Assembly: GCA_900322215.1 (NCBI GenBank)
Contig: ONYW01000002.1
Coordinates: 3,164-67,163, forward strand
Origin: an uncultured Eubacteriales bacterium
GTDB taxonomy: Bacteria; Bacillota; Clostridia; Christensenellales; CAG-917
Length of the DNA: 64,000 nucleotides
Direction of reading: 5' to 3'
The position numbers were made by a program, and so were the translations under genes. Within the stretch, counting starts at the first letter, position 1. Each line of letters starts with the position of its first letter. This document shows, in pieces, positions 48,840 through 52,135 of the stretch. The notes under the pieces are model-generated. The model was not told where the DNA came from. It was given only the letters and a program-made list of their open reading frames with translations, and searched no databases.

Positions 48840-49901
48840 ATGCCTATCAAAAGAGTCAACTATGTATCACCTGAAGATCTCGCACAAAAGCTTGACGCCA
48901 TTCAGGGATCGGAAGCAAAGCTTGAATATGCCCAAAACTATCTCTTGTCCTACAATGCAGACAAAGCTGAACCGGATCTTGATGATTTGATCAGCGTAAA
49001 AGCCGTGCTTGTCGCCAAGAACAAGATTGCGGAAGCCCTTGTCAAAGAGGGCAAAAAACCTTCCCTCGACGCTGAAGACAAAGCAAGTCTTTTTGTCGGC
49101 AATCCTCTTAAATATCTCGACAGACAAGCGAATTCGAATTTTTGGGAAGCCGAAGATGATCCACAAATGCAATATCGTTTTGCAAAGATCACAGGCAACA
49201 TACTTGCATATTCGGACGCGCTCAGAGATGCTGAACGCAGAGAGAACAACAGATCGGCCTTCCAAAGGCTCGAAGACAAGTTGCCTGAAGACAGTTCTCT
49301 CAAGGATCAAATTGCAGGCTGCAAGGCAGGCTTCTTTGAAAGGACATTTGGCACAACGTCCAACGAATACAAGAACTTTGAGCAAGAACTCCTGCATTTT
49401 GGCCCGGAAACCACAGATACACGCAGCCTTGAGACCACTTCTCTTGCATATCTCAAGCACAAGTTCCCAGCTCTTAAAGACGGCGAATTGCCAACCGAAG
49501 AACAGATCAACTCACTTTCAGGCGCAGGCAAAAACAGAGCTATGCTTGTTCTCAACACCTACAAGTCGATTCAAGAAAAGAATATGCAATCCCGCGTCAA
49601 AACCATGTCGAATGATTGCGCAAAGTATTCCCAGCAATTCCAAGAGAAGCAGGACAAAGAGCTTGCCGACACCGTTGACAGAATCTCAAAACAAAAGCTT
49701 GAAGCCAGCAACTATGATTTTGAAAAGAAGGCATACAAAGAGCCTGAAAAGAACGTCCAACAAGATTTCCACAAACAACTCTCTGAGGATGTCAAGGATA
49801 TACCGGAAGAGGAAATGTCCAATCTCATCATCAACGACGTTGCAAGCGACCTTTCAAAAGACAGCTACGACGATCTTGACAACGAAGACTTGAACATGTG
49901 A
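48840..49901 (+). CDS. hypothetical hydrophilic protein, acidic-tail family paralog A
   Basis: AGGAG RBS. Shares the core CKAGFFERTFGTTSNEYKNFEQEL...AYLKHKFP..GELPTEEQINSLSGAGKNRAML with ORFs 50274-51389 and 51440-52135. The tail is DSYDDLDNEDLNM. Confidence 0.8.
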   Translation: MPIKRVNYVSPEDLAQKLDAIQGSEAKLEYAQNYLLSYNADKAEPDLDDLISVKAVLVAKNKIAEALVKEGKKPSLDAEDKASLFVGNPLKYLDRQANSNFWEAEDDPQMQYRFAKITGNILAYSDALRDAERRENNRSAFQRLEDKLPEDSSLKDQIAGCKAGFFERTFGTTSNEYKNFEQELLHFGPETTDTRSLETTSLAYLKHKFPALKDGELPTEEQINSLSGAGKNRAMLVLNTYKSIQEKNMQSRVKTMSNDCAKYSQQFQEKQDKELADTVDRISKQKLEASNYDFEKKAYKEPEKNVQQDFHKQLSEDVKDIPEEEMSNLIINDVASDLSKDSYDDLDNEDLNM

Positions 49902-49920
49902 CATCAACACTTAAAAAGTT

Positions 49921-49957
49921 GCGTGTCGGACTGCAAAGTTCGGCACGCTTTTATATT
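49921..49957 (+). terminator. terminator after paralog A
   Basis: gcgtgtcgga / tcggcacgc imperfect stem followed by ttttatatt. Confidence 0.5.
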
Positions 49958-50027
49958 CTACAAAATGCAATATTGCGCAAAGAGGCAGATAAGGCGCTGA
50001 ATTGTGCAAATAAAGCGCGATTTGCAA

Positions 50028-50061
50028 CAAAAAATCTCGGTCTTGCCGAGATTTGTTTTTT
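50028..50061. terminator. bidirectional terminator between convergent island genes
   Basis: aaatctcgg(50032-40) tcttg ccgagattt(50046-54), with an A-run to the left and gtttttt to the right. Confidence 0.7.
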
Positions 50062-50082
50062 GACAATCGTTTGTCTTGTCAA

Positions 50083-50277
50083 TTATTCTTTCATATCGAG
50101 TTCTTCATCATCATAGTGGATCGTTGACTCATCTGAATATTCATCGTCATACATTCCGCCTTGATGATTATCACTTACATCACTTGCCAAGCTTTGTCTG
50201 AAATCTATCTGTTGTTCTTCGTTGTTGACTGCCTGTTGGTCTTGATCGTTTTTGAAATCTTTGAGACAAGTTCTCAA
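50083..50277 (-). CDS. orphan acidic tail module (possible frameshifted 3' end of paralog B or separate small ORF)
   Basis: 64-aa ORF from a TTG that overlaps the stop of B. It carries both family tail motifs, DFRQSLASDVSDN and YDDEELDMKE. Confidence 0.3.
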   Translation of the reverse strand: MRTCLKDFKNDQDQQAVNNEEQQIDFRQSLASDVSDNHQGGMYDDEYSDESTIHYDDEELDMKE

Positions 50278-51389
50278 TCGAGAGCAATGTCATCATCCTT
50301 CTTGATAATGTTATTATCATCGTTTGAGAGATCTTGATTGTCCGCTTTTATTATGTTGTTGTCGCTTATATCGTTTGCAAGGTCTTGTTGGAACTTGGCT
50401 TGCTTGTCGGGTTGTTTGTCAAGCACTTGGTTAATATTCATGTTGTCTTCACGCATTTTGTCATATGCGTCTTGAAGGCCGTAGTCTTCTATATTTTGCT
50501 TTGCAACGCCTTGAACGATGTTGAGTTTTGCTTCGTATCCTCTGGACTTTTGTGACGCTAGGAGAGTTTTGTAGCAAAGAGCCGCTCTGTTTGCAGACGT
50601 TCCCGTGAGTGCTTCCATTTGTTCATCGGTCGGAAGACCTTTTCCGTCCCAACCCGGAATTTTGTGCTTAAGATATGCTCTTGCCGCATTGTCCACATCG
50701 TCTCGAGATGCAGCACCGTTCTGTCTTGCCGCAAACGTTTCCTTGAAGTTTTTGTATTCGTTGGACGTTCTTCTGAAAATTCTTTCAAAGAATCCCGGCT
50801 TGCACTCTTCAAATGCCTCTCCGATAGGATTTGGGCTGCCTTTGAAAGAGTCTTGCAAATAGCCTTCAAGATTGAGCTTGTCGTTCATGATACCGCCGCG
50901 GGTTGTTTCATACGCAGAAAATCCGATTTCTTTGCCTTTGAGAAGGTTGATTGCTCTTTCACACTTTCTCCTCTTTTCCTCTTTGCGTTGCAGTTGATAT
51001 GCCTTTTCCTCTTCGTTCAGCTCAACGGATGGGTCAAGTTCGTCTTTTTCTTCAAGTTTTTCTTCCAACATATTTTTGACGCAGGTTGCGGGCGAAAGCA
51101 AAAAGACAGACATCAATGTGTTCGTTTCGCTTGCGCTCATGCCTTTATAAGTTGAACAAATTTCTTCATTTGTATGATTCTTCTTGTTCTCGGTTTGAGA
51201 ATGAAGAATTGTCTCTGCAATATTCTTTTTTGCCGCAAAGATGACTTCATCGATTCTCGCTGCGTCATTTTCATTGCCTTCTATGTTTTCGGCAATATAG
51301 TCAACAAGATCGTACAACTTCTCAACCGGATGTTTCTCTGCATTTCTCGTTGCTCCGAGTTTGTTCAAAATTCCTTGTGTTCTTAACAT
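50274..51389 (-). CDS. hypothetical hydrophilic protein, acidic-tail family paralog B
   Basis: AGGAG RBS 6 nt from the ATG. Core CKPGFFERIFRRTSNEYKNFKETF...AYLKHKIPGWDGKGLPTDEQMEALTGTSANRAAL. Confidence 0.8.
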   Translation of the reverse strand: MLRTQGILNKLGATRNAEKHPVEKLYDLVDYIAENIEGNENDAARIDEVIFAAKKNIAETILHSQTENKKNHTNEEICSTYKGMSASETNTLMSVFLLSPATCVKNMLEEKLEEKDELDPSVELNEEEKAYQLQRKEEKRRKCERAINLLKGKEIGFSAYETTRGGIMNDKLNLEGYLQDSFKGSPNPIGEAFEECKPGFFERIFRRTSNEYKNFKETFAARQNGAASRDDVDNAARAYLKHKIPGWDGKGLPTDEQMEALTGTSANRAALCYKTLLASQKSRGYEAKLNIVQGVAKQNIEDYGLQDAYDKMREDNMNINQVLDKQPDKQAKFQQDLANDISDNNIIKADNQDLSNDDNNIIKKDDDIALD

Positions 51390-51439
51390 ATTTTTCTCCT
51401 AAATACCATCAAATTTTTGTATCAACTCAAAATAAACTC

Positions 51440-52135
51440 TTAGTTGTCCATAGACATATTCAAATCATCATGCTCAAGGTCAAGGTCATATGCGTCTTTT
51501 GAGATTCTTTGCACGTTCACGCCATCAACCTTGTCTTCCAAATCTTTTGCAAGCGATTTTTGGAAGTTTTTTTGTCCTTCCGTGAGTTCTCGCTTGTCAG
51601 TTGTGCCGTCTATGCTGATGATTTTCTCGACCGGAGCAACGTCGTTAAGCAGGCCTTTGATCTCGTTTGCGTCGATTGAGTTGGCTTCATAGATTCTGCT
51701 TGTTGCAAGACTTGTGCCGTCCTTTTCCTGTTGTATTTCAACTGCGGCAACCAATCCGTTGAGCTTTTGCTCGTTTTCACTGGAATCTTTTGTAGCACTC
51801 AAAACGTTGAAACATAACATAGCTCTGTTTTTTGACTTGCCACTCAAAGCGTTTATTTGTTCCATTGTTGGAAGACCTTCTCCGTTCCAACCCGGAATTT
51901 TGTGTATGAGATATGCTTTTGCCGTTCTTTCAACGGACGCTCTGCTTGGGCCGTTGGAATTGTAGCTGTTTTCTTCTCTTGGACCTTCTTGGTATGCCTT
52001 GAACTCCCTTTCAAAATCTTTGTATTGACGAGAAGTTCTGCGGAACAAACGGTCAAAGAAACCTGCTTTGTTTCTGTTGAAGGCGGCATCGACACCGGCT
52101 TTGCCATCAATGTATCTTCTTTCGATATTGACCAT
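51440..52135 (-). CDS. hypothetical protein, acidic-tail family paralog C (N-terminally short)
   Basis: Core NKAGFFDRLFRRTSRQYKDFEREF...AYLIHKIPGWNGEGLPTMEQINALSGKSKNRAML, tail DAYDLDLEHDDLNMSMDN. There is no SD, and the start overlaps the upstream ORF by 29 nt. Confidence 0.65.
   Translation of the reverse strand: MVNIERRYIDGKAGVDAAFNRNKAGFFDRLFRRTSRQYKDFEREFKAYQEGPREENSYNSNGPSRASVERTAKAYLIHKIPGWNGEGLPTMEQINALSGKSKNRAMLCFNVLSATKDSSENEQKLNGLVAAVEIQQEKDGTSLATSRIYEANSIDANEIKGLLNDVAPVEKIISIDGTTDKRELTEGQKNFQKSLAKDLEDKVDGVNVQRISKDAYDLDLEHDDLNMSMDN

Follow-up and report, generated by a model that had tools for sequence, protein, structure and literature searches.

The stretch of DNA considered here (the window) comprises 64,000 nucleotides (nt) from an uncultured Eubacteriales bacterium (GenBank assembly GCA_900322215.1, contig ONYW01000002.1, positions 3,164 to 67,163). 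It carries three genes, A, B and C, for soluble proteins, close to the gene for a VirD4-type coupling protein. A reading made from the letters alone, without database searches (the sequence-only reading), had proposed that the three proteins share a core and an acidic C-terminal tail and are candidate substrates or effectors handled by the adjoining ATPase. The analysis described here places them in an unnamed family that, in related bacteria, is encoded at the end of a type IV secretion system (T4SS) operon, and considers whether they could be passengers of that system.

The genes at the locus

The three open reading frames (ORFs) appear in the ORF list exactly as they had been described (Table 1). 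A, B and C are paralogs, their similarity being well above chance (BLASTP E values of 7e-21 for A and B, 2e-23 for A and C, and 6e-34 for B and C). C matches the hidden Markov model (HMM) of the family at E 5e-68, and a database protein, P0001, is 99% identical to A. All three of the motifs previously picked out are present in an alignment of A, B and C: block 1, CK(A/P)GFF(E/D)RxFxxTSx(E/Q)YK(N/D)F; block 2, AYLxHKxPxxxxxLPTxEQxxxLxGxxxNRAxL; and a downstream motif, Fx(Q/K)xL(A/S)xD(V/I/L)xD. Two details needed correction. Block 2 of protein A starts with S instead of A, and of the two proteins said to end in DLNM, A does so but C ends in ...DDLNMSMDN.

Other features that had been read from the sequence stand. 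No transmembrane (TM) segment is found in the close A-like and B-like homologs P0001 and P0007, where the maximum 19-residue Kyte-Doolittle mean is ~1.2-1.3, against the 1.6 that marks a TM helix. Nor is there a signal peptide by hydropathy, the sole basis for this statement, as no signal-peptide predictor was used. The DNA is A/T-rich, with a GC content of 41-45% over 48-52 kb compared with 47-53% in the flanks. The adjoining ATPase is a genuine VirD4-like protein, with matches to PF02534 (4.4e-55), PF12696 (1.6e-31) and PF10412, an NCBIfam conju_CD1115 score of 311 bits (above the cut-off of 250) and a GSTGSGKT P-loop in its translation.

Gene A is convergent to the minus-strand operon and has its own promoter-like site and terminator-like hairpin, both of them consensus matches only; a further hairpin beyond these has the form of a terminator in both directions and is the probable end of the minus-strand operon. 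The 64-aa ORF directly after B carries a second FxQxLAxDVxD motif and an acidic tail, corresponds to positions 306-360 of the family HMM and is 61% identical to the last 54 aa of a 390-aa member, P0031 (tblastn 9e-15). It is the 3' remnant of a P0031-type paralog.

Table 1. Positions of the family genes, their signals and neighbouring features in the window
Feature	Position (nt)	Strand	Description
Fic-domain protein gene	47415..48476	+	Adjoins A; PF02661 2e-9, HVFNDGNKR motif, coiled-coil N-terminus
Promoter-like site for A	48713..48741	+	TTGACT-17-TATAAT, 11/12 matches; consensus scan only
Family gene A	48840..49901	+	353 aa, intact ORF; family HMM E 1.3e-84
Core of A	49281-49583		~aa 148-248; N-domain before, linker and acidic tail (end DLNM) after
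Terminator-like hairpin 3' of A	49921..49948	+	12-bp stem, then T run; consensus scan
Hairpin, terminator on both strands	50032..50054		Consensus scan
3' remnant of a further family gene	50083..50277	-	64-aa ORF, directly after B stop
Family gene B	50274..51389	-	371 aa, intact ORF; family HMM E 3.6e-152
Core of B	50541-50843		aa 183-283; last ~45 aa of B predicted disordered
Family gene C	51440..52135	-	231 aa, 5'-truncated remnant of 384-aa gene; core ~aa 9-119
Truncated 5' part of giant surface-protein gene	52107..53594	-	495-aa ORF
Deletion junction	52134..52148		TAT microhomology 52134-52136
VirD4-type coupling protein gene	53584..56067	-	827 aa, intact ORF
MBG-domain protein gene	56071..59283	-	1070 aa, just upstream of coupling protein; PF18887 8e-18

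The deletion and the truncation of C

The sequence-only reading had noted that C lacks an N-terminal region of about 170 aa found in A and B. The region is indeed absent, but the cause is a deletion and not a different protein architecture. The start ATG of C is the internal Met154 of its ortholog, and C is 98.7% identical to residues 154-384 of the second 384-aa protein of a related locus, L109, and 68.6% identical to residues 154-381 of the protein of another, L003 (tblastn). From 52136 down, the window matches codon 154 onward of this 383/384-aa family gene (L003, L109). Between 53700 and 52148 the minus strand aligns with the 5' part of a giant gene in L021 (85% nt identity), the ORF of which is longer than 1009 aa and runs to the contig end. 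The 495-aa ORF of the window corresponds to the 5' fifth of the giant gene, with an apparent N-terminal signal sequence, and its last ~10 codons are an out-of-frame read-through into C. It is not an independent gene but the giant gene cut by the deletion, and the short C is the scar that the deletion left, a truncated remnant. Misassembly as the cause of the truncation was rejected, because only 3 bp of microhomology lie at the junction and because the same junction, with the exact 231-aa product and the 495-aa ORF upstream, recurs in at least eight contigs (four of them, from four samples, were shown).

The deletion removed ~15 kb, a size obtained by arithmetic from the contig coordinates of L054 and L001. 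Lost are most of the giant gene, the pilin gene, the genes for a 240-aa and a 460-aa (VirB6-like) protein and VirB4, together with two long family genes, another 384-aa family gene (on the L109 arrangement) and the first 153 codons of C. When the pilin, 240-aa, 460-aa and VirB4 proteins of relatives were compared with the window by tblastn, none had a match. The locus thus holds no complete monoderm T4SS, and the adjoining ATPase has no channel encoded nearby; in this strain the machine is broken, and the family genes and coupling protein remain as orphans. The deletion is recent, because L109, which is 95.9% identical in nt sequence to the window from 52136 to the L109 end at 49714, keeps an intact operon. 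Its order is VirB4, genes for proteins of 556, 521, 384, 384 and 371 aa, the 64-aa remnant and A.

For B and for what remains of C, comparison with orthologs gives a ratio of non-synonymous to synonymous substitution rates (dN/dS) of 0.1-0.3. Both are under purifying selection, with no sign yet of relaxed constraint.

The operon in related bacteria

In the relatives, which are rumen Firmicutes, the operon starts with a gene for an MBG-domain protein of ~1070 aa, presumed to be a surface adhesin, followed by the VirD4-type coupling protein, which stands at the head of the same operon as the channel genes. Then come the giant surface protein (2450-2481 aa in L001 and L107), a pilin (PF18895), the 240-aa protein, the 460-aa membrane protein (VirB6-like), VirB4 (887 aa) and two to five family genes, always with the B ortholog last (L001, L003, L105, L106 and L109). 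The whole arrangement is visible on a single 133-kb contig, of which L054 and L001 are overlapping parts. Wherever sequence reaches past VirB4, in nine of nine distinct loci (L001, L003, L010, L011, L012, L020, L105, L106/L107 and L109), family genes follow it directly and in the same orientation, and in L031, L037 and L052 they lie just upstream of the adhesin and coupling-protein genes. The neighbouring clade of coupling proteins, at 48-60% identity, belongs to an ordinary Firmicutes-type T4SS, and none of its 13 loci, each offering at least 2.9 kb after VirB4, has a family gene. The link between the family and the T4SS is tight, co-oriented and specific to the clade.

Residues 1-160 and ~733-827 of the coupling protein in the window are its ends: the first 70-160 and last ~95 aa align in the close, family-linked clade only, and more distant relatives align only over residues ~70/160-730. 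These clade-specific extensions are candidate docking regions.

The pilin, 460-aa protein and VirB4 of the relatives score above the NCBIfam cut-offs for Mbov_0395, Mbov_0396 and Mbov_0397, families of the integrative and conjugative element (ICE) of Mycoplasma. These Mycoplasma-ICE-type channel genes lie at 370-5476 in L001, with equivalents in L003, L011, L012, L105 and L106. The operons are chromosomal and flanked by differing housekeeping genes, and the operons and flanks that were examined showed no relaxase, integrase or DDE transposase. Mycoplasma ICEs are also without a recognisable relaxase, and its absence alone is therefore no proof of a non-conjugative system.

A wall-less (Mollicutes) host was considered, from the labels of metagenome-assembled genomes (MAGs) and from the Mycoplasma-ICE-type genes. 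Such a host is made unlikely by the sporulation and peptidoglycan genes that related contigs carry (SpoIIR, YpeB and a SleB-type hydrolase in L108; SipL in L021). With these genes present, the Mycoplasma-ICE type of T4SS seems not to be confined to the wall-less Mollicutes.

The MBG gene upstream of the coupling protein is kept in ~30 related loci, with differing surroundings. Directly upstream of it, L021 (4670-6712) and L054 (4676-6721) encode a response regulator and a histidine kinase (PF06580, PF02518), and upstream of this two-component pair L054 encodes a 973-aa protein with a type IV pilin-like N-terminal methylation motif (876-3794; PF07963). The window is without the kinase/regulator pair and has rpsI ~0.8 kb upstream of the MBG gene (59283-60058); rpsI adjoins the MBG gene in L036 and L038 too.

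An unannotated, lineage-restricted protein family

Among 5.8 billion proteins searched by a word index there were only 28 relatives, all of them unannotated. When 1.84 billion cluster representatives (clusters at 50% identity) were searched exhaustively with a profile, 255 clusters matched at E <= 1e-3, 78 of these at <= 1e-30, and every one of the 255 comes from rumen or gut metagenomes. Twelve loci were found in a scan of 185,579 species genomes, all in rumen MAGs, which carry the labels Clostridiales/Clostridia, Ruminococcus, Bacillales, Acholeplasmatales and Erysipelotrichaceae. Plasmid and phage collections (tblastn) and IMG/VR (scan) yielded no homologs, and no description of the family or of the operon type was found in the literature. 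The family is real, unannotated and lineage-restricted.

The sequence-only reading had recognised no named domain in the core, and wider searches agree. Against Pfam, NCBIfam and PHROGs, A, B and C gave nothing above noise and no family at its curated cut-off (reporting limit E <= 1), and sequence profile searches of the PDB with three alignments gave no match (best E 0.3 or worse for A, B and C). The structure of B predicted by AlphaFold2 from a 24-sequence alignment is all-alpha, with a mean predicted local distance difference test (pLDDT) score of 80.5 and a predicted template modelling (pTM) score of 0.76. The models of B and C are entirely helical, the last ~45 aa of B and the last 28 aa of C falling below a pLDDT of 50. 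Foldseek found no significant match for the full-length B model in the PDB and BFVD or for a core-only C model in the PDB (best E 0.16-0.6, TM-score < 0.22; none in the PDB at E <= 0.001); rows for alpha-pore-forming toxins and sigma factors were weak, generic helical noise and were rejected. By these comparisons the core matches no characterised cytoplasmic family.

The invariant or near-invariant columns of the 24-sequence alignment read KxGFFERxFxxTSxEYKxF ... AYLxHKxP ... LPTxxQ ... R, with T, S, Y and R as invariant polar residues and K, E and Q as near-invariant ones. The N-terminal ~180 aa are homologous between A and B and are kept throughout the subfamily, and in the AlphaFold models of the A and B types this domain and the core are packed into one all-alpha body. 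The core of ~95 aa also follows different N-domains of ~375 aa in two longer types (hhalign probability 99.4%), one of ~545 aa and one of ~505 aa, that are kept one-to-one across loci, and it occurs in proteins of 570-590, 882 and 996 aa. The core is a separable module, common to three or more architectures. In some members block 2 is duplicated internally, in the form AxxYLKxKFPxLxxxELPTxxQIxxLSG, and positions ~202-270 of the family HMM are matched twice (P0022; L006 4662-5954, 431 aa; L016 4522-5811; L017 7915-9249). In the 553-aa member of L020, identity as an ADP-ribosyltransferase was rejected, the match (E 0.0016) reaching 18.2 bits against a cut-off of 23.4 and orthologs having none.

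The acidic tail is characteristic of the family. Apart from three entries that are short or look chimeric, the 170 members examined are without a TM segment. Over their last 30 aa the net charge has a median of -7 and is -4 or lower in 91%; for the whole protein the median is -16. At positions -20 to -4 the share of acidic residues is 24-54%, compared with 18% overall, with a maximum at -6 and -7; basic residues are under-represented, and position -3 is enriched in hydrophobic ones.

A, B and C belong to a multigene family, unnamed and diversifying fast, whose proteins are soluble and all-alpha. Arrays of five to seven genes and gene remnants are traits of turnover. The 64-aa remnant after B is present in L109 as well, and a 5' remnant of a family gene is found at the equivalent place after the B ortholog in L106 and L107. 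The remnants after B suggest that the family evolves by birth and death.

Other genes of the window

The MBG-domain protein of the window, like those of the relatives, would be a surface adhesin. The Fic-domain gene next to A was considered as a conserved partner of the family and rejected, because tblastn located it in no contigs other than those of this strain, even though Bartonella uses Fic proteins as T4SS cargo. Elsewhere the window consists of core chromosomal genes: rpoB, rpoC, metK, recD2, secA, prfB, tsaD, secY, the L13/S9 genes and a GH31 gene. RpoB (40760-44617, minus strand) has a long, strongly acidic C-terminal extension, and a fused bifunctional IspD/IspF gene (46005-47264, plus strand) lies beside an S4-domain gene, between rpoB and the island.

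Passengers of a T4SS?

The favoured explanation is that the family proteins are T4SS passengers, either substrates or effectors, to which a probability of roughly 45% is assigned. The proteins would be made in the cytoplasm without a signal peptide, the core and the acidic tail would recruit them to the coupling protein, and the T4SS would export or deliver them, with the gene family then evolving by birth and death. What favours this is the combination of a missing signal peptide (by hydropathy), a shared module, a biased and disordered C-terminus, and the expansion, dispersal and turnover of the genes. Much of the sequence-only reading is retained here. Its genetic tie to a VirD4-containing T4SS is seen in all nine loci with family genes directly after VirB4, its shared core recurs behind unrelated N-domains, and its acidic tail proves to be a family trait. 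Its proposal that variable N-termini are the cargo fails, as the N-termini of A and B are homologous, conserved and packed with the core, and no recognisable enzymatic domain is found. The check that it proposed, whether homologs elsewhere occur with VirD4-like genes, gives a positive answer for the operon loci but not for about half of the family loci, which are stand-alone arrays with no T4SS gene within 10 kb (L006 and L013-L019; seven paralogs in L017, six in L016, six in L006 and five in L018).

These stand-alone arrays are one of several points that weigh against a passenger role. In the models of the A and B types the core appears to fold with the N-domain, leaving no obvious free C-terminal signal domain, and it sits 90-150 aa from the C-terminus. 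Known type IVA signals (VirE2, VirF, BID) are positively charged, not acidic. A Pfam scan of 20 long members recognised no fused cargo domain, whether toxin or enzyme, and no small immunity-like genes adjoin the family genes or are interleaved in the arrays, where family genes abut one another. Despite the loss of the channel genes in the strain studied here, A and B are intact and C has a dN/dS that does not exceed that of B. This fits a very recent deletion and a function independent of the T4SS equally well.

A more specific form of the passenger explanation is less probable. It supposes that the core and acidic tail are a dedicated translocation signal, and that the system is a Mycoplasma-ICE-like monoderm T4SS domesticated on the chromosome of rumen Firmicutes for protein delivery and not for conjugation. 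If true, the family would be an effector repertoire with a recognisable signal domain, to our knowledge the first to be defined for any monoderm T4SS, and natural deletion variants such as the window would be ready-made secretion-null controls.

Two other explanations, both unlikely and to a similar degree, account for parts of the data. The first is that the proteins are cytoplasmic accessory components of the T4SS: adaptors or chaperones, subunits of a docking platform on the coupling protein or VirB4, or relaxosome-like DNA-processing factors of a conjugation system without a recognisable relaxase. The fixed, co-oriented place directly after VirB4 in all nine loci is what such components would show, as is the one-to-one retention of the two long types, and acidic tails are common docking elements. 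However, the number of copies per operon varies from two to five, divergent paralogs form stand-alone arrays of five to seven far from T4SS genes, and remnants and rapid divergence are unusual for stoichiometric parts of a machine. The relaxosome-like variant draws on the match of the T4SS genes to Mycoplasma ICE conjugation families and on the lack of a relaxase homolog in the examined operons and flanks, but domain scans detected no DNA-binding or nuclease domain in the family.

The second is that the function is unrelated to secretion, the genes having merely gathered beside the T4SS island, and that the proteins act inside the cell as an anti-defence factor or DNA mimic, a regulator or a scaffold. 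Chance is a poor explanation for a clade-specific, co-oriented linkage to VirB4 in every intact operon and for the absence of the family from the 13 T4SS loci of the neighbouring clade. Plasmids and phages, the usual carriers of anti-defence genes, have yielded no homologs. Nevertheless, the many arrays away from T4SS genes, the intact A and B in a strain with deleted channel genes, and the promoter-like site and terminator of A, convergent to the operon, are all compatible with an independent role. So is the strong overall acidity, which resembles that of DNA mimics, and the invariant polar residues could form an active or ligand-binding site.

That the proteins are contact-dependent antibacterial toxins of a bacteria-killing T4SS, like the X-Tfes of Xanthomonas, is very improbable: the family is expanded and modular with a shared C-proximal module, and the operon encodes large surface proteins interpreted as adhesins, but no array has interleaved immunity-like genes, the 20 long members scanned contain no known toxin domain, and the ADP-ribosyltransferase match of one long member is below threshold and not common to its orthologs.

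Significance

As far as we know, it is only in the T4SSs of diderm bacteria (Agrobacterium, Bartonella, Legionella and Xanthomonas) that protein substrates and the signals for their recognition are well defined, and we know of little on monoderm T4SSs, or on the systems of Mollicutes and Patescibacteria, beyond DNA transfer. A lineage-specific, expanded family at the end of the operon, with its conserved module and biased tail, is a concrete and testable candidate for what monoderm T4SSs move, and the family may be regarded as a candidate signal-bearing family for the secretion system of the Mycoplasma ICE type. The ~15-kb deletion allele coexists with an intact allele of ~96% nt identity, providing a comparative handle in metagenomes and isolates; samples in which the two alleles can be compared are ERZ27279872, ERR2027905, ERZ919317 and ERZ28614930 on one side and ERZ28613835 on the other. 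Should it have no part in secretion, the family remains sizeable, at 255 clusters, and has a predicted fold that matches nothing in the PDB.

Comparison with known systems

The closest parallel in organization is with the X-Tfe effectors and their XVIPCD domain (PMC8740702, PMC6536674). In both there are several paralogs per genome, with a conserved module of ~100-120 aa followed by a biased, disordered tail; the genes lie both beside and away from a VirD4-containing T4SS, and N-terminal regions differ between subfamilies. In XVIPCD a folded, motif-rich region binds the all-alpha domain of VirD4, and the biased tail is also needed for translocation (PMC8740702). However, the XVIPCD fold is alpha-alpha-beta-beta-beta (PMC8740702), whereas the core here is predicted to be all-alpha, and its tail is glutamine-rich with a basic or hydrophobic end, in contrast to the acidic tail here. 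The family module is not at the extreme C-terminus, immunity partners and known toxin domains are missing, and the host is a monoderm Firmicute. There is no detectable sequence similarity, the presence of an XVIPCD model in the Pfam copy used being unconfirmed.

In Legionella, Dot/Icm effectors carry glutamate-rich (E-block) signals at the C-terminus, which bind the coupling-complex protein DotM (PMC5802825, PMC7280309). The likeness is compositional only, in an acid-rich, disordered extreme C-terminus with basic residues depleted and a hydrophobic position near -3, although these effectors too form a large and fast-evolving repertoire. Dot/Icm is a type IVB system of a diderm, whereas the ATPase here is a VirD4 of the CD1115 family and the channel genes are of Mycoplasma-ICE type. 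No homolog of DotM or IcmSW is present here and no DotM-like gene was seen in the operon, the last residues are not basic, and the conserved folded core has no equivalent in E-block effectors. Membership of the XVIPCD X-Tfes or of the Legionella glutamate-rich signal effectors is excluded, because of the all-alpha fold, the lack of any sequence or Foldseek match, the different tail chemistry and the different type of machine.

The BID module of Bartonella Beps and of relaxases is, like the core here, a helical module of ~100 aa that has been proposed to act with a charged tail as a bipartite T4SS signal. It is duplicated in some proteins, much as block 2 is in P0022 and in the 431-aa protein of L006. 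The BID tail is positively charged, however, and that of the family strongly negative, and Foldseek gave no PDB match at E <= 0.001. BID structures are present in the PDB.

The machine itself most resembles two minimal systems. The pilin, 460-aa protein and VirB4 of the relatives fall in the same NCBIfam families as the CDS5-CDS19 module of the Mycoplasma ICE (PMC6030558), and both this element and the monoderm T4SS of Patescibacteria (10.1101/2025.01.22.634366) are, like the operon described here, minimal, with a surface protein presumably needed for contact and no recognisable relaxase. Unlike them, the operon here is chromosomal, lies among housekeeping genes without a DDE transposase and, in L021 and L054, has a histidine kinase and response regulator upstream; the family of soluble paralogs described here has been reported for neither. 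The Patescibacteria T4SS has been suggested to be repurposed for non-conjugative functions (10.1101/2025.01.22.634366).

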